Positions 6,015-18,005 of a DNA stretch of 39,583 nucleotides are shown here, one piece after another; the first letter of the stretch is position 1; each line of letters opens with the position of its first letter. The DNA is from a virus, in IMG/VR virus record IMGVR_UViG_3300005535_000012, positions 1 to 39,583 of that record. One strand, 5' to 3'. The position numbers were made by a program, and so were the translations under genes. Below the pieces are notes generated by a model, which searched no databases, was not told the DNA's origin, and saw only the letters and a program-made list of their open reading frames with translations.

Positions 6015-8042
6015 TTAAGCGCCGGCAGTATTGACCGACCATCCAAACCCAAGATTCGATGTTGCTGAAGCATTGGAAGAGATGGTAAAAGTGGTTGCCG
6101 TGACAGCACTCACCCAGAAGTTTGAGATCCCGGCTGCGCCAGGACTTCCGGTCGCCGTCAACTGGATTTCATATCCTTGAGGCTGAACATCAAGTCCGTG
6201 AGAAACCACAATGGACGAGTTCCCGGAAAGAAGGGTTGCGCTGCCAGAGTTCGATGTTTTGTAGCCGACATTGTGGTGGATGTACTTGCCAGGGCTTGAC
6301 GAACTTCCGTCAAAAATATTTCCGGCATTTCCACGAATATCACAGTCAGCAATAACGAAATTCGTCGATGAACCTGAATCAATCGTGATTCCATGACCGC
6401 TATTTCCTGTTCCACCACCAAAGTTTCCAAGCGACGCACCGATAATCGACCAATCACTTTGATTTGCGCCTACATGAACTCCATTGGAGTTTTGCTCAAA
6501 AACACCACCTAGGATTCGGAAGTCATCACCTTTGGTAAGCAAGATCCCATCACCCATATTGCTGACGCATTGAGGATCGATGAAATGAATACTCGAACAC
6601 GAACCAGTACCGGAATTATTAATTTCGCACCCATGAGAACCATTATTACCAAACCAGCAATTACTGAAACGTACATTACTTACACTTCCAGTAGATGATG
6701 GAATAATGAAAACTCCACGCTGGACATTACTATCAAAAAATGTATTATCTGACCACACTGCATAAGCGAGTTGAGAAGCGCCAGGGGAAATAATCATGCC
6801 AGTCCCTTGGTGCTGGATCTCGCATTGTACAATTCTTAGATCATTAGTTTGATTAACAACAATACCAAAAGAAGGCTGACTTCCAGAGGGCGCATCCATA
6901 ACAATATTCATGACCAACTGGTCGAACCCTGACGAATTAGCGCCGATAACGATAGAGCGCCCAACTGTGGCTACAGTATTGCGAATCTGTCCATCTCGTA
7001 TAACAGCAATAGTCGAGCTAAAACTTATTGCTGTATATGCTCCAAAGACAGAGAAATCTCTAAGTGTATGGGTAGCACCCGAGGTAAAGTTAAACGTCGT
7101 TCCGCCCGTCCTAGTGACGCTATGAACAATATTCAATCCGGCTATTTCAATATCAGAAGCAGAGATATCGAACAAATCATCAGTCGGAGAATTGCATGTT
7201 AACGTAGTGCCATATTCAAAATCACCAAGAAGCTTGAAATTATTAACAGAAATATTGATAGTTCCGGCGATTAGATAATTTCCGGCAGGAACGTATAGAC
7301 AATGGCCTGACATATTAGCGATTGCATTGTTGAAAGCCGAAGTATCATCGGTAACGCCATCTCCTTTCGCCCCAAAATCTTTTACAGTAACAAAATCCTG
7401 AAGCCTAGATTTAACGGTTCTGGTTACCGCATTTGAACTGCCCTGGTTATATGATAATTTGCTTGACTGAATACCTGCATTTAGAGCAACGCTTGCGTCA
7501 GTAACACTTCCCGACCCCGGGGTTCCTATAGCAATCGTATTTCCTACTTTAATATTTACTTCATTTACACCAATTGGAATCGCCGAATTAAATGTCACGA
7601 CAGTTCCTGAAACAGACCATGTATCAGGAGTCTGGTAGACACCATCAAAAAAGACCCACAGATTTGCCGGGGATCCTGGGGAAGATGAAATCGTGAGAGT
7701 CGTCGTAGTGCCCGGAGTGAAACCAGTCCCAGACAAATAGGCGTTGTCGGTCATGTTCCCGATTAGACCGCTGCTCGTATCTTCCGTGATTTGGTCCCAG
7801 ATCAAGTTGTTAAACTGATCATAGACGACCTGCCGATAAGTACCCGCCCCCCAGATCAATGCTTGCCCGTTCGCATCTAGAACAATAGGATTTGTGTTAA
7901 GGATGGTTTGGGCTGGGTCCTGCCACGTATTCTTGAACGTAGAAGTGTTGGGGATGTAGAAATAGACCGATCCACCAGCGAGCGGCTTCCCGTTCGAATC
8001 GATGAACTGACTTTTTGCATTCGGCAGGATGGTAGCCGCCAT
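6015..8042 (-). CDS. Tailspike / depolymerase, right-handed beta-helix (pectate-lyase-3-like), 675 aa
   Basis: VKDFGAKGDGVTDDTSAFNNAI motif followed by long Asn/Gly/Ser-rich beta-helix-like sequence. The N-terminal head-binding-type region and the gene position match P22 gene 9. Confidence 0.75.
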   Translation of the reverse strand: MAATILPNAKSQFIDSNGKPLAGGSVYFYIPNTSTFKNTWQDPAQTILNTNPIVLDANGQALIWGAGTYRQVVYDQFNNLIWDQITEDTSSGLIGNMTDNAYLSGTGFTPGTTTTLTISSSPGSPANLWVFFDGVYQTPDTWSVSGTVVTFNSAIPIGVNEVNIKVGNTIAIGTPGSGSVTDASVALNAGIQSSKLSYNQGSSNAVTRTVKSRLQDFVTVKDFGAKGDGVTDDTSAFNNAIANMSGHCLYVPAGNYLIAGTINISVNNFKLLGDFEYGTTLTCNSPTDDLFDISASDIEIAGLNIVHSVTRTGGTTFNFTSGATHTLRDFSVFGAYTAISFSSTIAVIRDGQIRNTVATVGRSIVIGANSSGFDQLVMNIVMDAPSGSQPSFGIVVNQTNDLRIVQCEIQHQGTGMIISPGASQLAYAVWSDNTFFDSNVQRGVFIIPSSTGSVSNVRFSNCWFGNNGSHGCEINNSGTGSCSSIHFIDPQCVSNMGDGILLTKGDDFRILGGVFEQNSNGVHVGANQSDWSIIGASLGNFGGGTGNSGHGITIDSGSSTNFVIADCDIRGNAGNIFDGSSSSPGKYIHHNVGYKTSNSGSATLLSGNSSIVVSHGLDVQPQGYEIQLTATGSPGAAGISNFWVSAVTATTFTISSNASATSNLGFGWSVNTAGA

Positions 8043-8277: not shown

Positions 8278-10713
8278 CTACGGCCTTCCGTTGCTCCCTC
8301 CGAGAGACCTGACACCCCCGGTGGTAATGGCTGGATACAGGAGCCTCTGGAGTCCGATGTTGCTCGCGACTGGAGCCGCAATACCGGCTGCACGATTGAG
8401 CGCAGGCGCAGCTAATTGCGGATTCAGCAGCATATTAGCAAGATTTGCTTGGATCTGTTCATTGCTTGCGTTCGCAAGTCCGCCAAGCGTACGCCCAGCG
8501 AATGAACCCGCGGCGCTCCCAAGCGTTGCCCCAATGGGACCACCCAACAAATACCCCATCCCCCCTCCGATAGTCCCTCCTACTGTGCCAGCCGGTAGTT
8601 TGCCAACAAGCGCCCCTAGTTTCCCAGGAAGTGCAGCTTGAAGCATATTCTGCGTTGCCAAATTTTGCGCAGTCGAACTTCCGGCTGATCTGCCAAGACC
8701 AGTGCTCGAGGCACGCAGCAAATCATCTCGAATCGCTGTAAGCGCATCGATTTGAGATTGATTTACTGATTTCGCAAGATTAACCCCGGGTTTTTGCTGG
8801 GATTTCTGAATATTAGCTAAGGCATTCTGTACTTTGGAGAGTGTAATGTTTCCTTGCGCATCCGTGAGATTCATACCTTGCAAATACTGCATTGCATCAA
8901 TCGGCCGAGATGCAGCAGCATAAGATCCTCGCGCTTCAGCGTAACCAGGGATCTCCCGGTCCATCAATGACAGCAATTGGTCTTTGACTCCAAGCAAATT
9001 TGAAGCTTTGCTTTTTTCTCCAGCCTGAGCAGCTGAATTGATCTGATCATCGAGAGCCTGCTTTATCCAATGCAGCCCCGTTCCAGAAACGTATGTCTGC
9101 GGGGAACCAAGCGCGCCACCCATGTTGGCATTAGCTTGATTTTGAACGGTAGTCTCAATTGATGGCGACCCTGCATTCTTTGCCATAGTCTGAGCCTGCT
9201 TAAAGGCTGACTGGAATGCAGGAGTCTGCTTAAGAGCAGAATATTCGGTGCTCGATGTTGGGATACCAACGTGCGTCGACAAATAATCTTGGACGGCAGA
9301 TGTGTCTCTGCCGGCTCTAGCGGCAACTAAATCATCCGCAGTTCCTGTAATCCTTTCTAGGGCTCCAAGGCGAGCGGCAGCATTTTGCTGCTCCTGAGCA
9401 ATGAATGGATTCGGACTGATATCTCGAATCGTGCGCTGAAGAGTTGCGATCCCAGGATTTGCCGTAGCTTCAGCCAATGTCGGAGAAGAGCCCGCCACGA
9501 GTTGCGACAGATTAGGAACCGATGGTCCGCCTTGCGCAGCTCTCGCAAGAATATTTTCGGCAATAGCTTGCTGACCAGAATTAGTGAAGGGTTGAAGAGC
9601 CGAACCGATGACATTGCCAGCATATCGCCCTGCACCCACCGCACCCGAAACCAGCGCCGGAGTAGCCGCACCCAGGAGTGCGCCGACTCCCATTTGACGC
9701 AACTTATCCGATCCGTAATTTTGACTGTCCGGAGAAACGGGCGATACTGCGCCCATGGCAGCGCCACTTACAGCCCCGCGTCCAGCAAGACCCAGCAATC
9801 CAGTCCCTACTGGCGCCCCGATAACGAGTGGAGCGGTAGCAGCCATTGCGCCGCCGATGTTGCCAGCGCCAGTTGCAATGGGGTGCGCTTGTTGGTACGG
9901 CGCGACTTCCTGCGCGCCAGCCTGCAATCCTTGGTTCGCATTGTTGACGAGCCAATCACCAGCGCGACCAATTGCTCCGACAAGGCTTTGACCTTGCGGA
10001 GTCATGCCTTGGCCAGTCGTGCCAAGAGATTGCAGGCCATGCCCAAGCAATTGCTGTGCGCCGAGTGCGGTCTCTTGGACACCACGGCCCAAGCCTGCCA
10101 AAAACGATGTGCCTGTTCCCGGCTGCGGCCCGGTTGGCTGCTGCGGAGATGCTTGTGGAGATACTGCCGCCGAATTTGGCGCAGCACTCTTCGTCATCGC
10201 CGCAAAAATCGCATCGTCGGATTGTGGCCCTTGCTGCTGTTGTGCCGGCGCGCCTCCCTTGCTAAACGCAGAGAAGATCGCATCATCACTTTGGGTGCCG
10301 CTAGGTGCAGCAGTCGGGATTCCGGGGAGTACTTGAGGCTGCGTCGGTTGTGATTGCTTTGGCAGATTCGAAAGCACTTTCCCGGGATATGCCTGCGTCA
10401 AAGGCCCCCAATTCTTCTGATCCGTGCCGCCGTGGTATGCGCGTAAAGCATCCTGAACGTTGCCATAGCGGTTCAGGTTTTCATTCAGCAGATTAGCAAT
10501 CGCCGGAATCGCTTGATTCGGGTCAGTTGGATCTTTGACGCCAAGAGCTTGCGCAGTGGCCGGCATAAGCTGTCCAAGACCGACTGCACCAACGGATGAT
10601 TTGGCGTTCGGGTTGCCGCTAGATTCAACCTGGATGACGGCGCGAATCAGCGAAGGATCAATATTGTATTGCTTCGCAGCAGATTGAATGATACTCGAGT
10701 AATCGGCCATCAT
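8278..10713 (-). CDS. Ejection/internal virion protein with N-terminal soluble lytic transglycosylase domain, 811 aa
   Basis: SLT signature IRAVIQVESSGNPNAKSSVGAVGLGQLMPATA; long Gly/Ala/Gln-rich remainder; position equivalent to P22 gp16 / T7 gp16. Confidence 0.85.
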   Translation of the reverse strand: MMADYSSIIQSAAKQYNIDPSLIRAVIQVESSGNPNAKSSVGAVGLGQLMPATAQALGVKDPTDPNQAIPAIANLLNENLNRYGNVQDALRAYHGGTDQKNWGPLTQAYPGKVLSNLPKQSQPTQPQVLPGIPTAAPSGTQSDDAIFSAFSKGGAPAQQQQGPQSDDAIFAAMTKSAAPNSAAVSPQASPQQPTGPQPGTGTSFLAGLGRGVQETALGAQQLLGHGLQSLGTTGQGMTPQGQSLVGAIGRAGDWLVNNANQGLQAGAQEVAPYQQAHPIATGAGNIGGAMAATAPLVIGAPVGTGLLGLAGRGAVSGAAMGAVSPVSPDSQNYGSDKLRQMGVGALLGAATPALVSGAVGAGRYAGNVIGSALQPFTNSGQQAIAENILARAAQGGPSVPNLSQLVAGSSPTLAEATANPGIATLQRTIRDISPNPFIAQEQQNAAARLGALERITGTADDLVAARAGRDTSAVQDYLSTHVGIPTSSTEYSALKQTPAFQSAFKQAQTMAKNAGSPSIETTVQNQANANMGGALGSPQTYVSGTGLHWIKQALDDQINSAAQAGEKSKASNLLGVKDQLLSLMDREIPGYAEARGSYAAASRPIDAMQYLQGMNLTDAQGNITLSKVQNALANIQKSQQKPGVNLAKSVNQSQIDALTAIRDDLLRASSTGLGRSAGSSTAQNLATQNMLQAALPGKLGALVGKLPAGTVGGTIGGGMGYLLGGPIGATLGSAAGSFAGRTLGGLANASNEQIQANLANMLLNPQLAAPALNRAAGIAAPVASNIGLQRLLYPAITTGGVRSLGGSNGRP

Positions 10714-12227
10714 TGCCCTCCACCGGGAATTTGAATCACCCCGCTGCGCACGAGATTCCCGAGGTCAGCCTTGAACTTTGCCAATTGTTGCGGGGATTGA
10801 CGCGCGATAAACTTCTGTTGCTGCTGTGGATTCATCGATGTGAAAACAAAGGCGTCAGGATTAACAGCTTTGTTCCACTGAGACTGCCATTGGTTGAACT
10901 TGTCAGTCGTCAGGCCCGAATTCTGGAATGCATAGTCCTGCGCAGCTCGCATCTTCTCGCCAGCGATCGTCTTAGCGAGGATATCTTCGTTCGCCAACTT
11001 CGAAATGCTAGGGTTCGCGTTCCCCGTCACAGCCGCATTCAGGCGAGCATCCGTGCCAGTACCAAGAGAACCGGAGACCGACGAAGCATAGTTCGTCAAG
11101 ATTTTCTTGAACTCGTCATAATTCTGCACATCCCCGGTCCAGCCGATCTGCTTGGCAGTTTCCGGGGCCAGTGCATTGAAAAAGGATTTCGCCTGATTCC
11201 GCCAGTCAGTTCCGGGACCGGTATTGATGCCAGAAAGCGCATCGCGCGCCTGTTCAAGCAAATTGACGCGCATCGGTACATCAGCCGCCGAGTCATGCAG
11301 TTGCTGGGCGGCGGTGTTCGAGGTCGCACCTTGCGCCGTCAATGCGGCTTGCTGGGCTGGCGAAAGCGAAGTTTGGATGCCAGGTGCGCCGCCTTGACCG
11401 CCCTGATCGTAGCGGCCTGTATAGCCACCGCCAGAACCTCCGGCCGGAGCATTCGGGACACCTCCTCCGCCTTGCATCTGAAGCCATTGCGCCGTCGTGA
11501 TTTGACGCTGCTCACCATTCGGTCCAATTATCATCTTGGGAGCAGCCAGTTCCGACGGAGACAGAGCATTTTGCACAGTCGTGCCAACCGTCGATTCTCC
11601 GGTGAGAGGATTACGATTGAGAAGAACGGTTGCGGCACCAGTCTGAACTGGAACGTTCTGCGGCATCAAAGCTTGAATCTTCGCTTCGCCCGATAGCGAG
11701 TTGATCAGATGATTTTGAATCCATTGCGCCTGAGAACGAGGATCGCCGGGAATCGACTGGATCTCACGAATCCCCTGATCGAGAGGCAAAAGGCCGGACT
11801 GCACTGCATCGGAAATCTGTCCGGCAATCTTCGTGGACATATCAGTCTTACCCACTTCCGGATCGACTGCCAGAGAACCAATCATGCCTCGAATACCCTG
11901 CTGCTGCTTCAACGCAAGATCGAGTTTCCCCGTGTCATACTGGAGCTGCGAATTCCGTTGCTGGGCGATTTGCCCCATGAACTGCGGCAAAAACGCTCCT
12001 GCGCCATTCTGCGCGGCGAGAGATTGCAGCTTGTTGAAATCTACCGTTCCATCAGGGTTGACAGATTGCTGATACGCTTGCGAGATAGCTTGATTTGCAC
12101 CAAGCTGCATCTGATTCTGACGCAGGGCGAGCAGACCCGAAGCCGTCTGAATCGGCTGTTGAAGGGCCTGCATCGGGTTTTGCGGCAATTGCCCTTGGAG
12201 GGGTATTGTTGCGTCGATCGGGGGCAT
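10710..12227 (-). CDS. Ejection/internal virion protein, 505 aa, Gln/Gly-rich
   Basis: Low-complexity Q/G/A-rich composition; ATGA overlap with the SLT protein gene; synteny with P22 gp20. Confidence 0.6.
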   Translation of the reverse strand: MPPIDATIPLQGQLPQNPMQALQQPIQTASGLLALRQNQMQLGANQAISQAYQQSVNPDGTVDFNKLQSLAAQNGAGAFLPQFMGQIAQQRNSQLQYDTGKLDLALKQQQGIRGMIGSLAVDPEVGKTDMSTKIAGQISDAVQSGLLPLDQGIREIQSIPGDPRSQAQWIQNHLINSLSGEAKIQALMPQNVPVQTGAATVLLNRNPLTGESTVGTTVQNALSPSELAAPKMIIGPNGEQRQITTAQWLQMQGGGGVPNAPAGGSGGGYTGRYDQGGQGGAPGIQTSLSPAQQAALTAQGATSNTAAQQLHDSAADVPMRVNLLEQARDALSGINTGPGTDWRNQAKSFFNALAPETAKQIGWTGDVQNYDEFKKILTNYASSVSGSLGTGTDARLNAAVTGNANPSISKLANEDILAKTIAGEKMRAAQDYAFQNSGLTTDKFNQWQSQWNKAVNPDAFVFTSMNPQQQQKFIARQSPQQLAKFKADLGNLVRSGVIQIPGGGQ

Positions 12228-12234
12228 ATCTTCC

Positions 12235-12810
12235 TCACAGCAAATAGCCGCGCGATTGCATAAAATCGATCGGATGCTTCGCTTTCTTACTTAGATTACA
12301 CGAAGGGCAAAGAATCTGAAGATTAGTCTTTTCATTTGACCCTCCGAGCTTTATCGGAATTATATGATCAATATGGTACAGAACATTTATTTCAGTCATG
12401 CAACAAGCGCATTTCCCGCTCTGAAGTTTAATCAGATCAATAGCAAACTTATAATTAATGCGTCCGCCATTTGAGCGCCGCCGTGCATTTGACATGCGAA
12501 CATAGAGTTGCACCTTACTGCGATTCTTTTCTACCCATGCATTAGCCGTAGCGCGAGCCGCTTCGCGATTGTTATCGTACCACCTTTTCTTCATGGCAGA
12601 ATGTTTACCAGGGTTATTAGCCTTATATCTACGATCAGCTTCGGCCTGCCTCTTGGCATGAAGTTCAGGATTCAATGCTTTACGAGACCTATAATCGGCA
12701 GACTTGCAGGATTTACACGATGGATAATACCCATCCTTCATCCACTTGGCCTTCGTAAAAAGGTCAAGTTCTTTAACCTCTCCACACTTCGTGCAAGCCT
12801 TTGTCGGCAT
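12235..12810 (-). CDS. Free-standing HNH homing endonuclease, 191 aa
   Basis: Canonical motif YHIDHIIPIKLGGSNEKTNLQILCPSCNLSKKAK plus an N-terminal CxxC...CxxC. Clearly AT-richer than both flanking ejection-protein genes, and it occupies an intergenic slot. Confidence 0.85.
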   Translation of the reverse strand: MPTKACTKCGEVKELDLFTKAKWMKDGYYPSCKSCKSADYRSRKALNPELHAKRQAEADRRYKANNPGKHSAMKKRWYDNNREAARATANAWVEKNRSKVQLYVRMSNARRRSNGGRINYKFAIDLIKLQSGKCACCMTEINVLYHIDHIIPIKLGGSNEKTNLQILCPSCNLSKKAKHPIDFMQSRGYLL

Positions 12811-12818
12811 CTTGCCCT

Positions 12819-13574
12819 CTACTGGAAGAAAATCGGATTGCCTGCTGCTGTCGTGCCATAGATATTGTTGGCCGCGCCAGCGCCAGCACCTCCATTGCCA
12901 AGCAGCGAATACAGCAAACCGCCTTGCCCAATCGAGCCAAGACCGGAATTGATAGCATTCGCCATCCCGATCTTACCTGCTGCTTGAGCATTGGCTCCAG
13001 ATGTCAGGAAATTTCCCGCTTGGTTAGCGGTTTGCAATCCAGCATTGCCAACACCCGCAGCAGCGTTCTGACCTAGACTAACAAGACCAGCTTGACGATT
13101 GTACTGATCGGACTGGATGCCATAGTTGGTCATGAAGTTTTGCAGCGCATTCTGGTATTGCTGTTGGAAAGTTTGATCAGCGAGACCGGTCGTATATTGC
13201 CCGATCCCTTTCGCCTGCGCACCGGACAGGTTCAAGCCTTTCGCGGCCAAAGAGTTATCAACCCCCTTCAAACCTTGCTGAAGGGTAAATTGGTAACCTG
13301 GGGTTTGTTCAAGTTGTGCTTGAGTAGGATTGAACGAAAAATTCATGCCGCCCAATCTACCAAGTTGCCCCTGAAGACCTTGTATGGAACTTGTCCCAAG
13401 ATCCATATAGGGTTGCAGATTTTTCTGCATCTGCTGGAACTGCTGCCACTGGAGATTGGCAGCGTTATTTGCTGCATCCGCCTGAGTCTGAGCAGCGTCT
13501 GATGCGGCACCGGCCGACATGGCAGAGCCCGCCAGACCGGCTGCTGCGCTTACACCAATTGCTGCTGCGACCAT
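12819..13574 (-). CDS. Ejection/internal virion protein, 251 aa, Gly/Ala/Gln/Asn-rich
   Basis: Composition and position equivalent to P22 gp7. Hydrophobic Ala/Gly N-terminus. Confidence 0.55.
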   Translation of the reverse strand: MVAAAIGVSAAAGLAGSAMSAGAASDAAQTQADAANNAANLQWQQFQQMQKNLQPYMDLGTSSIQGLQGQLGRLGGMNFSFNPTQAQLEQTPGYQFTLQQGLKGVDNSLAAKGLNLSGAQAKGIGQYTTGLADQTFQQQYQNALQNFMTNYGIQSDQYNRQAGLVSLGQNAAAGVGNAGLQTANQAGNFLTSGANAQAAGKIGMANAINSGLGSIGQGGLLYSLLGNGGAGAGAANNIYGTTAAGNPIFFQ

Positions 13575-13575
13575 A

Positions 13576-14034
13576 TCAATCTCCCAACCATTTCTCGTAG
13601 GTCGTTTCCACTTGCTCGAATCCTAGGAAACGGAACAATGCCGATGCGTCGTGTTGAATCTTGCTGCCAACTGCCCATCGCTGGACGCCACGTCGACGCA
13701 ATTCTTTCTCAACAAAGCGAAACATTCTCGCCCCTGCCAAACCTGTACGCCTATCCTCTCGAACGAAGAAAATATCAGGCGAGCACGTAAGGCAAGTTCG
13801 GTAATGCAGACCGGGCGCGATGAAACAGACAAAATACGCCACAATCTCACCGGCTTCTCGGCCAATCGTCATCATCAGAGAACCGTCTTGCTCACGCGCG
13901 CGGTAGACTTCGACCATCGGCTCAAGCGGGACATCATGATCTTTGTGTGTCGAGATCTCGCCGTAGTGCTGCTCAAGCAGCGGAAGCAGCTCGGCATAGA
14001 CCTGCGAGAATGGCTCGATCGCAAAAGTAATCAT
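13576..14034 (-). CDS. GNAT-family N-acetyltransferase-like protein, 152 aa
   Basis: Motif-A-like FVREDRRTGLAGARMFRFVEKELRRRGV (R-x-x-G-x-A); size typical of a single GNAT domain; ATGA overlap with the upstream gene. Confidence 0.6.
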   Translation of the reverse strand: MITFAIEPFSQVYAELLPLLEQHYGEISTHKDHDVPLEPMVEVYRAREQDGSLMMTIGREAGEIVAYFVCFIAPGLHYRTCLTCSPDIFFVREDRRTGLAGARMFRFVEKELRRRGVQRWAVGSKIQHDASALFRFLGFEQVETTYEKWLGD

Positions 14035-14612
14035 CGTGAAGTCCTGATGTCCACTACCATGCTGATCCGATCAGAGGAACTGTTATTGACAACCTCATGA
14101 ACCTGACTGTTATCGAACCAGAAACAGTCGCCCGTCGTCATGCTGATTTGCTCATCACCTGCCGTCAGGATCGCGCCTGGCAGGCCCTGCAACACCACAT
14201 GGAAACGGGTGTAGTAACACGTCTGTTCCGGCGTATCAGCATGCGCGAAGATACGGCCGCCTGGCACGATCTTGTTAATCATCACGCGCCCAAGACGTTC
14301 GCCAGCAACACGAGCCATCAGGTTCATCACGATAGGACGAGCTTCATGGAGGACCTTGTACGGCGGGTAATCAACTGCTTCGTACTGATCGTAGCCCGCA
14401 AGCTGGTTCTGCTTATAAAGCTCGATCTGCTCTTCGGTGAGGCCTTCCACTTTCTCCGGGAATCGAAGCATGATTGTCTCCGTCTCGCCAAACGGGCCCT
14501 GCGGATAGTGGCGAAGGAACGTATCCTCCTGCCACAATTCAGGGCGACGTTTGATGGCGAGAACAAGCGGATTAACATCTACACCGCTTGCCAAGAGATG
14601 GAAATTACGCAT
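14031..14612 (-). CDS. Aspartyl/asparaginyl beta-hydroxylase-family Fe(II)/2-oxoglutarate dioxygenase-like cupin, 193 aa
   Basis: Metal-triad pattern GRIFAHADTPE ... FDNSQVHEVVNNSSSDRISMVVD, matching the HxD...H layout of this family. Confidence 0.65.
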   Translation of the reverse strand: MRNFHLLASGVDVNPLVLAIKRRPELWQEDTFLRHYPQGPFGETETIMLRFPEKVEGLTEEQIELYKQNQLAGYDQYEAVDYPPYKVLHEARPIVMNLMARVAGERLGRVMINKIVPGGRIFAHADTPEQTCYYTRFHVVLQGLPGAILTAGDEQISMTTGDCFWFDNSQVHEVVNNSSSDRISMVVDIRTSR

Positions 14613-14950
14613 TAGGCCATTCCGCCAATAATGTATTGTTCGCTAGCCGGAGTGATCGCACCAGCAGTAGTATTCACATACTGGATCTGAAGCGTATTCG
14701 CCGCTGACACGAATACATTCCCGATAGACAGACCTGCTTGATGCGAAGGCTTATTCACGTCAATGCTGTCACCTACCGCAAGGCCATTGACAGTGAAGGT
14801 CTGAACAGCAGTCGTATTCGCCGCAACCGAGGCCGGTGTCAACGTCTGCTTGATATTGTACATGCGAGTAATCGTCGTCGCGCCAGCCGATTGCATCTTG
14901 ATGGACGCGGGGGCCAGGATATCAGTTGCAACACCAAGATAATTTGCCAT
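14612..14950 (-). CDS. Small beta-rich virion-module protein, 112 aa (start moved to ATG 14950)
   Basis: AAGGAG 7 nt upstream of ATG 14950; Thr/Ala/Val/Asn-rich composition; stop overlaps the next start (TAATG). Confidence 0.55.
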   Translation of the reverse strand: MANYLGVATDILAPASIKMQSAGATTITRMYNIKQTLTPASVAANTTAVQTFTVNGLAVGDSIDVNKPSHQAGLSIGNVFVSAANTLQIQYVNTTAGAITPASEQYIIGGMA

Positions 14951-14963
14951 TTCACAACTCCTT

Positions 14964-15308
14964 TTAAGCGCTACCGCTAGTTTCGTAGACACCACCGGCA
15001 ATCGTTACCGATGTATTGGCGGATGCCAAAGCCTGCAAAGTCATGCCTGCCTCAAGTTGCAATCCAATTGCCTGGGGCGGGACATAAGTCTGCCCAGACG
15101 CCAGAGAAAAGGACGACATGATCGTATTCGTTACTCCGGGCGATCCAGCCGATGGAACTCTGTAGAGAGTCACCGTCACAGGGCTGCCTGAAGTATTCGT
15201 GAGCGACAGATTGTTGATAGTGGATGTCGTTCCAGTCGGCGCTGAATAATACGTAGCGGTAGCATTCGTCAACTGTGCCGAAACAATCGCTTTCGGAATT
15301 CGCTGCAT
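14964..15308 (-). CDS. Small beta-rich virion-module protein, 114 aa
   Basis: ORF tightly packed between tail genes; Ser/Thr/Gly-rich. Confidence 0.55.
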   Translation of the reverse strand: MQRIPKAIVSAQLTNATATYYSAPTGTTSTINNLSLTNTSGSPVTVTLYRVPSAGSPGVTNTIMSSFSLASGQTYVPPQAIGLQLEAGMTLQALASANTSVTIAGGVYETSGSA

Positions 15309-15844
15309 TATCCTAGCCCTTTTACATAAACCTTACTAACTCCAACAGGAATAGCTGAAGTAAAAGTCAGCGTCACTCCGCTCAGAGAATACTGATCATC
15401 CCCTTGGAATATGCCATCGAAATATACCCAAAGCTGGGAGCCATTTGAAAACGAATGACTCAGAATCAGAGATGTTGTAGTGCCAGGAGTAAAATCTGTG
15501 CCACTCGAAAAAGTCTGATCTGATATTGTCCCGGTGGACGCGGTGCCAGTTCCAATCGGAGCAAAGATCATCTCAAGTATTGAATCTTTTTGCCCTGGCA
15601 TGCCGAAAGTTGTCTCTCCAGACAATGCATCCGCACCAAGAATTGGAGAAAGAGGAGAAAAAGTTTCTTCCAGCGCCAATACATCAGCAATCGTCAACGT
15701 ATCGGGAGGAGCACCTCCGCCTCCACCAGTCCGACGCCAAAGTTGGATCAGGAAAATAAACCACGCTTCCGTAACGTTCCCCGTCTGCGGATCTACAAAT
15801 GGGACATTGACGAGCGGGACATCGGTTTGGATAGCGGAAGCCAT
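15308..15844 (-). CDS. Tail protein in the needle (P22 gp26) position, 178 aa; its C-terminal domain is paralogous to a tailspike domain
   Basis: Start at ATG 15844, 2 nt after the upstream stop. N-terminal VPFVDPQTGNVTEAWFIFLIQLWRRTGG. The C-terminal ~74 aa align at roughly half identity (by eye) with tailspike residues ~95-170. Confidence 0.55.
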   Translation of the reverse strand: MASAIQTDVPLVNVPFVDPQTGNVTEAWFIFLIQLWRRTGGGGGAPPDTLTIADVLALEETFSPLSPILGADALSGETTFGMPGQKDSILEMIFAPIGTGTASTGTISDQTFSSGTDFTPGTTTSLILSHSFSNGSQLWVYFDGIFQGDDQYSLSGVTLTFTSAIPVGVSKVYVKGLG

Positions 15845-15846
15845 GA

Positions 15847-17262
15847 TCACTCGTTGTTCGATTCGGCCTGAACCCAAGCTCCAAGAAGCGAAGTTTCGAC
15901 CGGAGCTGACCATGAAAGCTCGAATACGCGGTCACGCGCCATCCCGAGCCGCTTGAACTGCAACGACGTCAGATATTCCCCTTCCTTGCCAAGACTGATG
16001 CTAATGGCGTTTCCCCATGACTTACCGCGAGTATCGCTCCAACGAAGGAAGACAGGAACAGGTCCATAGTTATTCCCGTTCCCGACTTCCATGTTCGCAA
16101 TGAACTCGCGGTAGTGGATCCGGCTAGAATTCCCATCTACACCGTGGGCAAAAGAACGAATCCTAGGAATGGGGTTTCCGTTGTCAGTGAAGTTATTCAC
16201 ATCCCACAGATACAAATTCCCGTTCTCCCAATCGCCAACGATGGGCATGCCATATGCCGATGCATAGCAGTTGGCACGATGACGGTTCAATCCGCCATTC
16301 TGGTCAACCCAATTAAGTTCGTTCCACTGCTGAGTTGACAAATCGTACTGCCACGTTTTATTGGCAGTCGGAAAGGTCAAGACATAGAAGAAATGACCTT
16401 CTATCTGGTATGTGAATCCAATCGCATCATCAACACGAGAATAAGTAGCGATCTCGTTATCGAGAGCAAATGTCGAAATCTGAGAAGCGTTGAATTGCTG
16501 GCTGCGGTTCACATAGCATGTGCCCTGCTCTGACTTTGCCAGCCAATATACCTCGCCATCCATCTGAGCAATAGAGCCGACTGCTGCGCAACCATGTTGC
16601 ATGAAGACGCCCGGCAGACGCTCGAACGGGAACGTAGTATCCCCTGCGTTAAACCATACTTCTGTCGTCACTTCACCCAAAAGATAAATATATCTCTTTG
16701 TAACGCCGATGCCGATCAGATTGTCTGAAAACGCTGACTTTGATGCGAAATCTGTAGCGTCAAAGACGATTTCATCGTTAAGTGAAATGTACCATTGGCG
16801 CGTGCCGGGTACATTCAGAACCAGAAATCCATCCACAAAACGCACGATATTGCCTCCAGCGAAAGAGGCATCTGTGATCGATGAAAACGTATCATCTTTC
16901 AGCTTTATCGTATATCCGTTAGCCGTCCCATCGACCATCACCACATACGTTGCATTGTCGATCATCGATACGGGGCCAGAATTCGTTCCGATCGAACCGA
17001 GCAATTTCAGCGTGAAATCTGAATTGATACGGTAGACAGACGAACCGCACACGCCATAAAGGATGCCATTAGACGCCGAATAAAGGCCGCGCCAACCTGA
17101 GTCAGTAGCCGTGGCCTTCAGGGTGAGACCGGGGCTAAGATAGTAGGTATAAGGGAAAGATGCATCCTGGGGATTTTTCTCCCCATAGAGATTGATGCAG
17201 CGCTGAGCCTCCACAACGAGACTCTTCGCCATGTAGGCGCCAGTTGTGAGTGGCACTTTCAC
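15847..17262 (-). CDS. P22 gp10-like tail hub / packaged-DNA stabilisation protein, 471 aa
   Basis: Length matches P22 gp10 (472 aa). Motif layout is similar (..ILYGVCGSSVY..GPVSM.. near the N-terminus, ..FKRLGMARDRVFEL.. near the C-terminus). GTGA coupling to the adaptor gene. Confidence 0.6.
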   Translation of the reverse strand: MKVPLTTGAYMAKSLVVEAQRCINLYGEKNPQDASFPYTYYLSPGLTLKATATDSGWRGLYSASNGILYGVCGSSVYRINSDFTLKLLGSIGTNSGPVSMIDNATYVVMVDGTANGYTIKLKDDTFSSITDASFAGGNIVRFVDGFLVLNVPGTRQWYISLNDEIVFDATDFASKSAFSDNLIGIGVTKRYIYLLGEVTTEVWFNAGDTTFPFERLPGVFMQHGCAAVGSIAQMDGEVYWLAKSEQGTCYVNRSQQFNASQISTFALDNEIATYSRVDDAIGFTYQIEGHFFYVLTFPTANKTWQYDLSTQQWNELNWVDQNGGLNRHRANCYASAYGMPIVGDWENGNLYLWDVNNFTDNGNPIPRIRSFAHGVDGNSSRIHYREFIANMEVGNGNNYGPVPVFLRWSDTRGKSWGNAISISLGKEGEYLTSLQFKRLGMARDRVFELSWSAPVETSLLGAWVQAESNNE

Positions 17263-18005
17263 GGCGAACTCCCGATATAGAAGTCGCCGTAGATATTATA
17301 AGTACCAGTCTGCTGACCTCGAAGCGCCGCAGGCATCTGCAACAGGGGAATTTGTGAATTTACCTGCTCGATGATGCGCATGGAAGCTTCGGCCTTCTTC
17401 TCGACAACCGGGTTCACCGGAAGCCCGTAGAAAGGGTAGAGCTCAAGCGTCAAATTCCACATCATCGCGGCCGAATATTCGGGCGGCAGCGAGATTTGAT
17501 CATTGATCGTGGTGAAATTCTGAAGCTGCTGCATCACTGTGATGTCGATCTCGTACTGATTGCTCGGGATCGGCCATACGAAGAGATTGGCGAGCGGGTA
17601 GCCCGCATCATAGAAGGCATATCGCGGGAACGAGTTCAGATCCTTCAGCGAGATGCGATCATAGTCCTCACGCGCTTTTAGAATCTCAAGCGGATAGCTG
17701 ACGGGAAGCGGCGTGTTGGTATTCTGCCGGAAATAGGCGAACTCCAGCTTGGCGGGGCGCACGATGTTGAAGTCGCCACCAGCCCCAACAGTGTATGAAA
17801 TTGCACCAGTCGCCTGCTTTGAAAGCGTGATGAGCTGGTAGACCATGTAACGCCGGCGCTGCCATTGCGCCAGCATCATGTTCAACAGGTTGAACGCATC
17901 GTTCATGTCCTCCGCAGACGCAACCTGCCCCACGCCAAGGACATTGGCTGTCCTCAGCGAAAGATTGATGATATCGGAAGGCGTCTTCGGGGAAGGGACG
18001 GTCAT
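17259..18005 (-). CDS. Head-to-tail adaptor-like protein, 248 aa
   Basis: Sits immediately upstream of the gp10-like gene. The N-terminal SDIINLSLRTANVLGVGQVASAEDMNDAFNLLNMMLAQWQ pattern is typical of podovirus adaptor/tubular-A proteins. Confidence 0.45.
   Translation of the reverse strand: MTVPSPKTPSDIINLSLRTANVLGVGQVASAEDMNDAFNLLNMMLAQWQRRRYMVYQLITLSKQATGAISYTVGAGGDFNIVRPAKLEFAYFRQNTNTPLPVSYPLEILKAREDYDRISLKDLNSFPRYAFYDAGYPLANLFVWPIPSNQYEIDITVMQQLQNFTTINDQISLPPEYSAAMMWNLTLELYPFYGLPVNPVVEKKAEASMRIIEQVNSQIPLLQMPAALRGQQTGTYNIYGDFYIGSSP

Follow-up and report, generated by a model that had tools for sequence, protein, structure and literature searches.

The 39,583-nucleotide viral DNA of IMG/VR record IMGVR_UViG_3300005535_000012 (positions 1 to 39,583; the window) carries, within an operon for podophage DNA-ejection proteins, a gene for a 193-amino-acid (aa) oxygenase directly upstream of one for a 152-aa GNAT-fold protein. 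We file the GNAT as this phage's internal virion protein A (IVP-A), a small cytoplasmic protein of acetyltransferase fold on which podoviruses depend for building functional ejection proteins. Since it fills the IVP-A slot, this half of the finding is of an already known kind, and the new part is the Fe(II)/2-oxoglutarate (2OG) oxygenase that has been added, and is sometimes fused, to a known IVP-A/IVP operon. Functional coupling of the oxygenase to IVP-A and the ejection module is in our judgement very probable; we give an even chance to the whole of our best explanation, in which the oxygenase would be an IVP-A partner that hydroxylates a newly made ejection protein.

A preliminary description of the window, drawn up from its letters alone, had placed both open reading frames (ORFs) on the minus strand and noted the stretches RIFAHADTPE and SQVHEVVNNS in the oxygenase and RRTGLAGARMF in the GNAT; all are present, and both genes are translationally coupled to their neighbours, as it had also stated. 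Read directly from the sequence, the upstream 129-aa gene meets the oxygenase gene in TAATG, the oxygenase and GNAT genes overlap by ATGA, and a 1-nucleotide gap (TGA-T-ATG) separates the GNAT gene from the following 251-aa gene. GC content is 0.53-0.54 over the two genes, like that of the neighbouring structural genes and unlike the 0.445-0.46 of the nearby HNH ORF, again as had been described.

Families, folds and the IVP-A slot

The 193-aa protein matches the Pfam family PF05118 at E=3.6e-14 (53.3 bits, cutoff 22.6), and its AlphaFold2 model (predicted local distance difference test (pLDDT) score 89) has a double-stranded beta-helix (cupin) fold. The top Foldseek match to this model in the PDB is L-proline cis-4-hydroxylase (4p7w, E=8e-11), with a nucleoside-antibiotic hydroxylase, human AspH (~1e-7) and proline 3-hydroxylase among the further matches; E-values for 4p7w, 5jqy and 1e5r range from 8e-11 to 4e-7. 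By sequence, the best PDB matches are proline 3-hydroxylase and human AspH. Residues H124, D126 and H172, which form the HxD...H triad, are invariant among 62 homologues, as is R182, which lies ten residues past the distal His, the distance typical of the Arg that binds 2OG. Across a set at 30-58% identity, H124 never varies, and conservation of D126, H172 and R182 is 90% or higher; the sole exception is homologue P0335, which has lost the HxD and distal His motifs and is apparently a decayed or non-catalytic copy. The protein has no transmembrane or hydrophobic segment (KD19 maximum 0.96). Its motifs and predicted fold thus mark it as a presumably active, soluble Fe(II)/2OG oxygenase of the AspH/proline-hydroxylase family.

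One role put forward for the pair had been a late change to envelope lipid or lipopolysaccharide, which would include an LpxO-like action on lipid A. LpxO does lie within PF05118, and the window protein gives a weak local match to the LpxO model, but it scores 15.8 bits against the equivalog NF033391, for which the cutoff is 500, and is therefore not LpxO. The protein moreover has no membrane anchor, falls about 100 aa short of the 297 positions of the LpxO model, stands among ejection genes and is found fused to IVP-A. Lipid A modification is essentially excluded.

The family call for the 152-aa protein also holds. Its match to PF00583 is marginal (20.8 bits, cutoff 20.7), with homologues at 24-32 bits, and is backed by a match to phrog_1249 'acetyltransferase' (4e-12), by a profile of diverse homologues that matches solved PDB GNATs at E=1e-5, and by a predicted model (pLDDT 94) with mixed alpha/beta GNAT-type architecture. 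Foldseek comparison of this model with BFVD yielded 117 matches at E<=1e-3, led by N-acetyltransferases and including the GNATs of VpV262 and roseophages, so that structure searches placed the oxygenase with AspH and proline hydroxylases and its neighbour with viral N-acetyltransferases. The BFVD matches also include small Autographiviridae proteins (125-137 aa, E ~1e-5, TM-scores by query and target length 0.51-0.63), one of which, a possible gp13 homologue, is annotated 'host specificity protein A', a name used for gp13 of T7-like phages. Within motif A of the window protein, the invariant R96 pairs with the Arg of RGQGIG in 1z4e, and most homologues retain G101.

In P22, gene 7 is immediately preceded by gene 14 (151 aa, annotated DUF2824 (PF11039) or 'head morphogenesis'), and in T7, IVP-B (gp14) is preceded by gene 13 (138 aa, PF11090). 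T7 IVP-A (gp13) matches acetyltransferases in HHpred, is nonstructural, is required for virion morphogenesis and acts as an IVP assembly protein; P22 and epsilon15 have IVP-A homologues just before IVP-B, phiRIO-1-like phages have an acetyltransferase-family gene in the IVP-A position, and an acetyltransferase-family nonstructural IVP assembly gene is conserved in this slot across podoviruses (Hardies 2016, PMC4819975). The same work finds that the slot before IVP-B can hold unrelated nonstructural proteins, such as the phiRIO-1 gp39 family, and a cobavirus paper ties the SIO1 GNAT to gp13 (PMC6775973). Homologues of the window GNAT at 26-36% identity hold the same slot in Zobellviridae Vibrio phages and in a Manatee Spring phage. 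With no sequence-level tie to gp14 or gp13, the assignment of the window GNAT as IVP-A is made by position, size and fold, together with the published HHpred result, and is not one of demonstrated homology. The preliminary description had held that only structural genes occupy this position in the P22-type gene order. The slot between P22 genes 26 and 7 is in fact that of gene 14, the nonstructural IVP-A counterpart; the GNAT fills a known place, and the oxygenase is the extra gene.

Distribution of the pair and contents of the slot

Relatives of the oxygenase were found in three of 50,697 phage records: Pseudomonas phage PfAn1 (a cultured carrier; 56% identity, its GNAT being 48% identical to that of the window), Limnohabitans phage DC33 and one Manatee Spring genome. 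A nucleotide search of the same records with the 4-kb block gave no match. The oxygenase is common in metagenomes and prophages, where it forms 1,023 clusters at 90% identity and has 3,453 representatives at E<=1e-3, 153 of them at E<=1e-30. Where hosts are named, they belong to Achromobacter and Paraburkholderia in the case of the oxygenase, and to Paraburkholderia, Cupriavidus, Ralstonia and Burkholderia in that of the GNAT.

The order oxygenase, GNAT, gp7-like gene is kept in 47 of 49 IMG/VR loci retrieved via the oxygenase, and the oxygenase adjoins the GNAT in all 68 loci retrieved via the GNAT, a set that shares part of its contigs with the first; the two genes are also adjacent in PfAn1 and DC33. 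In DC33, the next gene after the pair encodes a 107-aa protein with an N-terminus (MGVTAAVAAVVG...) like those of IVP-B proteins; the taxonomy line of this record (Inoviridae) is plainly an error, the genome being 39 kb long and having terminase and portal genes.

No genes of the block are better conserved than the oxygenase and the GNAT, both of which evolve 3-6 times more slowly than the flanking virion genes. Relative to the window, the oxygenase has a median identity of 85% and the GNAT of 81%, compared with 35-60% for eight neighbouring virion genes, and median dN is 0.105 and 0.151, respectively, compared with 0.28-0.71 among those eight. All genes are saturated at synonymous sites (pS ~0.74), which makes dN/dS proper unreliable, and dN and amino-acid identity were used instead. 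Low dN together with saturated synonymous sites is the mark of long co-residence under strong purifying selection and not of recent acquisition. A recent moron was accordingly rejected: the pair is present in every close relative, its synonymous sites are as saturated as those of its neighbours and its conservation is the highest in the block, in keeping with the earlier view of both genes as long-resident operon members.

The oxygenase also occurs without the GNAT. At four distant podophage loci (L003, L051, L052 and L055), tblastn detected an oxygenase, with 29-34% identity to that of the window, which immediately precedes a 'DNA ejection' gene of P22 gp7 type or with a T7 gp14-like N-terminus (MPWAAAA... 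compared with MCWAAAIP... in T7). These distant slot-mates score 28-40 bits against PF05118, and no GNAT was found anywhere in the four loci, even with an unfiltered hidden Markov model (HMM). The oxygenase alone fills the slot in L003, L052 and L055, and L051 adds a small Cupin_2 ORF between oxygenase and IVP-B (8557-8865). Just upstream of the oxygenase in L052 lies a 167-aa ORF (7489-7992) with a sulfotransferase-like PRSGTTW loop and a weak match to PF13469 (E=0.017), possibly a further modifying enzyme of this slot.

In other lineages the two proteins are a single polypeptide. Among the best 150 representatives at 50% identity, 14 are fusions of an N-terminal oxygenase to a C-terminal IVP-A-type GNAT, a domain order identical to the gene order in the window; E-values for the GNAT domain run from 8e-07 to 1e-46, with 12 of the 14 at <=1e-30. 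Fusions are interleaved with unfused relatives, and for nine of the 14 the nearest relative is unfused. One fusion, P0333, occurs on three contigs that are independent and stem from different samples; immediately after it come a phrog_598 ejection gene and then 489- and 428-aa genes, with a P22 gp10-type gene upstream on one of the three; as a query in the IMG/VR search for related loci, P0333 gave no match. In further fusion proteins, the partner of the oxygenase is a small cupin or a second copy of the oxygenase itself. The slot before IVP-B thus holds a GNAT alone (T7, P22, Vibrio and marine phages), oxygenase and GNAT (the window), a fused oxygenase-GNAT, an oxygenase alone, or oxygenase and cupin, which extends the observation by Hardies that it tolerates alternative nonstructural occupants.

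Fusion of a small Cupin_2 domain to the oxygenase, once in reversed order, was seen in several lineages (P0347, P0370, P0416, P0440 and P0461), making the cupin a second recurrent partner. Seven proteins of 378-965 aa (P0375, P0377, P0425, P0472, P0429, P0407 and P0410) carry a pair of AspH-type domains in tandem, followed in some cases by a large C-terminal extension, and may be cellular rather than phage proteins. Three fusion-bearing contigs, L132 (120-2942 and 8670-10778), L133 and L134, also encode a PfkB-family kinase, a CTP_transf_like nucleotidyltransferase, a small cupin and an NT5C-like protein, a set reminiscent of HldE-type nucleotide-sugar (ADP-heptose) synthesis.

Candidate roles of the oxygenase

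Modification of an ejection protein is our best reading of the oxygenase, strengthened by the oxygenase-GNAT fusions and by oxygenases standing alone beside IVP-B genes. The oxygenase would now be an obligate partner of IVP-A, co-translated with it, fused to it in some lineages and elsewhere found alone directly upstream of the IVP-B gene. Late in infection, it would hydroxylate in the cytoplasm a side chain of a new ejection protein, with IVP-B (gp7-like) the prime candidate, in concert with the action of IVP-A, possibly acyl transfer or holding of the client; the modified protein would then be loaded into the procapsid. We infer that an ejection protein is the substrate and hydroxylation the reaction, and that both enzymes stay out of the virion. 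Taken by itself, the claim that the oxygenase hydroxylates an ejection protein falls somewhat short of even probability. A stronger version, in which the ejection proteins of a large group of podophages are matured before packaging by O2-dependent, AspH-like side-chain hydroxylation in tandem with a truly catalytic IVP-A acyltransferase, is offered tentatively and seems to us on the unlikely side.

Several observations weigh against this explanation. Comparison of the window GNAT with P22 gp14 and T7 gp13 by hhalign, with shallow and with diversified alignments, gave a probability of ~0.5%, and an unfiltered HMM of the window GNAT retrieves neither gp13 nor gp14. Motif A of the GNAT is only partly canonical, its central Gly being replaced or not conserved, so that cofactor binding is plausible from the sequence but unproven, and catalytic activity of IVP-A is only putative for the class as a whole. 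When IVP-B proteins from oxygenase-bearing phages, which are of low complexity, were aligned with P22 gp7, no Asp, Asn or Pro column stood out by its conservation. In DC33 (L002, 7422-12100), the pair lies between the large terminase and portal genes with no recognisable IVP-B after it. Finally, the closest solved structures, proline cis-4- and 3-hydroxylases, act on free amino acids, and a small-molecule substrate is therefore possible.

The gp14 family itself gave no significant GNAT signal: its profile matched in the PDB only repeat-protein artefacts (Cake/Scone) and, non-significantly, the PseH GNAT (E=0.09), and among Pfam families at E<=10 it matched DUF2824 alone. Sequence homology between gp14 and GNATs consequently rests on the published HHpred match and on the Pfam acetyltransferase clan, which we take to contain DUF2824 and Phage_T7_Gp13.

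A small-molecule substrate would suit a two-step pathway, in which the oxygenase hydroxylates a free amino acid or metabolite and the GNAT N-acetylates the product or supplies an N-acyl substrate, yielding a compound for host takeover, signalling or virion chemistry. In addition to the free L-proline and nucleoside-antibiotic hydroxylases among the best PDB matches by fold and sequence, a fusion protein weakly matches TIGR04531 'nonproteinogenic amino acid hydroxylase', and enzyme fusions are typical of consecutive metabolic steps. The invariant late-operon location directly before IVP-B in very different phages argues against such a pathway, as does the known phenotype of the IVP-A slot, virion morphogenesis (PMC4819975); oxygenases that occur without a GNAT indicate that a fixed two-step pathway is not required. 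We consider this pathway improbable.

Both folds might instead be non-catalytic, serving as chaperones or scaffolds to which ejection proteins are bound for loading, with the oxygenase domain used for binding only. IVP-A is known only genetically, as an assembly factor, and an unrelated protein takes the slot in other phages (PMC4819975); the partly degenerate motif A and the P0335 homologue that lacks metal ligands would also fit. However, invariance of the triad and the 2OG-binding Arg in 62 close homologues, and their conservation at 90% or more at 30-58% identity, would be unexpected in a pure binding module, and dN is very low. The conserved partnership with an intact, sometimes fused oxygenase leads us to argue that the slot encodes chemistry and not just chaperoning, and we hold a purely non-catalytic use of both folds to be unlikely.

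Packaging of the enzymes with the ejection proteins, followed by their injection to modify host targets at the start of infection, has only a slim chance in our estimate. The genes do lie inside the ejection operon, enzymatic cargo domains are carried by podovirus IVPs (such as the N4 virion RNA polymerase and lysozyme domains, according to Hardies) and the SLT domain of the window 811-aa protein is another example. T7 IVP-A, by contrast, is not in virions, and the oxygenase and GNAT are fused only to each other or to cupins, never to IVP-B, C or D.

Hydroxylation of ejection proteins in tandem with a catalytic IVP-A would, if true, be the first biochemical function for the long-enigmatic gp13/gp14 class, for which the literature searched offered no biochemical function beyond the HHpred match to acetyltransferases, and a search for +16 Da and +42 Da marks on ejection proteins would offer a handle on it. 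Progeny infectivity would then depend on oxygen and 2OG in the producing cell. Were hydroxylation essential, phage from anoxia or iron limitation would be predicted to be less infectious, which would be ecologically relevant; the hosts named for carriers (Achromobacter, Paraburkholderia, Pseudomonas fluorescens and Limnohabitans) are aerobes. Nothing in the literature searched ties an oxygenase or hydroxylase to internal virion or ejection proteins. There, 'aspartyl hydroxylase' appeared only in one list of auxiliary metabolic genes, and GNATs of this kind were either tied to gp13 or listed as auxiliary metabolic genes; the present analysis corrects this recurring annotation of such GNAT and hydroxylase genes.

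Gene order of the block and related systems

The block from 18005 to 8278 is colinear with P22 genes 4-10-26-14-7-20-16 (Table 1), running adaptor (Ad), head-closure gene (Hc3), small genes, the additional oxygenase, GNAT, gp7-like gene, gp20 slot and gp16 slot. P22 gp7 is assigned to phrog_598 (2e-95), as is the window 251-aa protein; the 505-aa protein in the gp20 slot matched no family in Pfam or PHROG profile scans. A consensus scan of the minus strand from 12800 to 15350 revealed no promoter-like or terminator-like site that would break the operon, counts in the scanned region being no higher than in shuffles, and no Rfam family matched in 12000-16000.

Table 1. Features of the oxygenase-containing ejection operon and its surroundings in the window.
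Feature	Position	Strand	Evidence
AspH-family Fe(II)/2OG oxygenase, 193 aa, predicted soluble	14031..14612	-	PF05118; gene absent from P22 and T7
GNAT-fold protein, 152 aa, IVP-A slot; presumed nonstructural assembly factor for ejection proteins	13576..14034	-	PF00583, phrog_1249, fold model, slot and size like P22 gp14, PMC4819975, PMC6775973
IVP-B / P22 gp7-type DNA-ejection protein, 251 aa; candidate substrate or client	12819..13574	-	phrog_598 'DNA ejection' 1.5e-32
HNH (endonuclease VII-like) probable homing-endonuclease insertion, outside the system	12235..12810	-	PF01844 3e-10, phrog_1035 1.5e-32, low GC
Ejection protein, 505 aa, P22 gp20 / IVP-C slot	10710..12227	-	Position and size; 25-77% identity in relatives
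Ejection protein, 811 aa, N-terminal SLT lytic transglycosylase domain, gp16 / IVP-D slot	8278..10713	-	PF01464 4.7e-24; phrog_342 'internal virion protein with endolysin domain' 8e-31
Three small genes (129, 114 and 201 aa), P22 gp26 slot, upstream within the same operon	14612..15913	-	ORFs and synteny
P22 gp10-type head-closure (Hc3) and gp4-type adaptor genes; anchor the P22 colinearity	15847..18005	-	phrog_578 Hc3 5.5e-107; phrog_637 Ad3 1e-10
Pectate-lyase-type tailspike, 675 aa, also encoded with this block	6015..8042	-	

The HNH ORF, with a GC content of ~0.45, sits between the gp7-like and gp20-slot genes. It is missing from all related loci, in which these two genes are spaced ~15-230 nucleotides apart, and looks like a homing-endonuclease insertion into the ejection operon; a homing endonuclease is also marked in the IVP gene map of Pf-WMP3, according to the legend of Fig. 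7 in Hardies (PMC4819975). The C-terminal 91 aa of the 201-aa protein (15308..15913, minus strand) are 45% identical to tailspike residues 75-165 (E=3e-11), which suggests that the two proteins share a particle-attachment or adaptor module, duplicated or exchanged between them. For the 129-aa ORF (14612..15001, minus strand), the mechanically assigned TTG start overlaps the upstream gene by 38 nucleotides, and an internal ATG (MANYLGV...) about 50 nucleotides further downstream is the more plausible start.

Among characterized enzymes, human AspH and the proline 3- and cis-4-hydroxylases (PF05118) have in common with the window oxygenase the double-stranded beta-helix, the family HMM and the Arg ten residues after the distal His. 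Identity to human AspH and to bacterial proline hydroxylases is only 15-20%, and the window protein is a minimal 193-aa version without TPR, membrane or other domains; it has the full HxD...H triad, whereas human AspH shows HTG at that place in the alignment. With LpxO it has the Pfam family in common but neither a passing equivalog score, the model being failed widely, nor a membrane anchor. The collagen prolyl 4-hydroxylase of PBCV-1 is likewise a virus-encoded 2OG oxygenase that hydroxylates proteins and ranks 23rd among the fold matches (5c5t, E=3e-6); unlike the window oxygenase, it belongs to another 2OG subfamily, comes from a virus whose host is a eukaryote and is unconnected with genome-delivery proteins.

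Like T7 gp13 and P22 gp14, the window GNAT is encoded by a small late-operon gene (138-152 aa) directly upstream of IVP-B and downstream of tail-tube or needle genes, and has the acetyltransferase fold in common with them. It differs in being a recognisable Pfam GNAT without detectable sequence similarity to either, and in always having an oxygenase partner, which T7 and P22 lack. The GNATs beside IVP genes in VpV262, SIO1, cobaviruses, Zobellviridae Vibrio phages and HTVC010P-type pelagiphages hold the same slot, are homologous at 26-36% identity and are the top structural matches, but have no oxygenase partner and are often annotated as auxiliary metabolic genes. phiRIO-1 gp39 takes the slot without a recognised enzyme fold, whereas the occupant of the window type is an oxygenase with intact catalytic residues.

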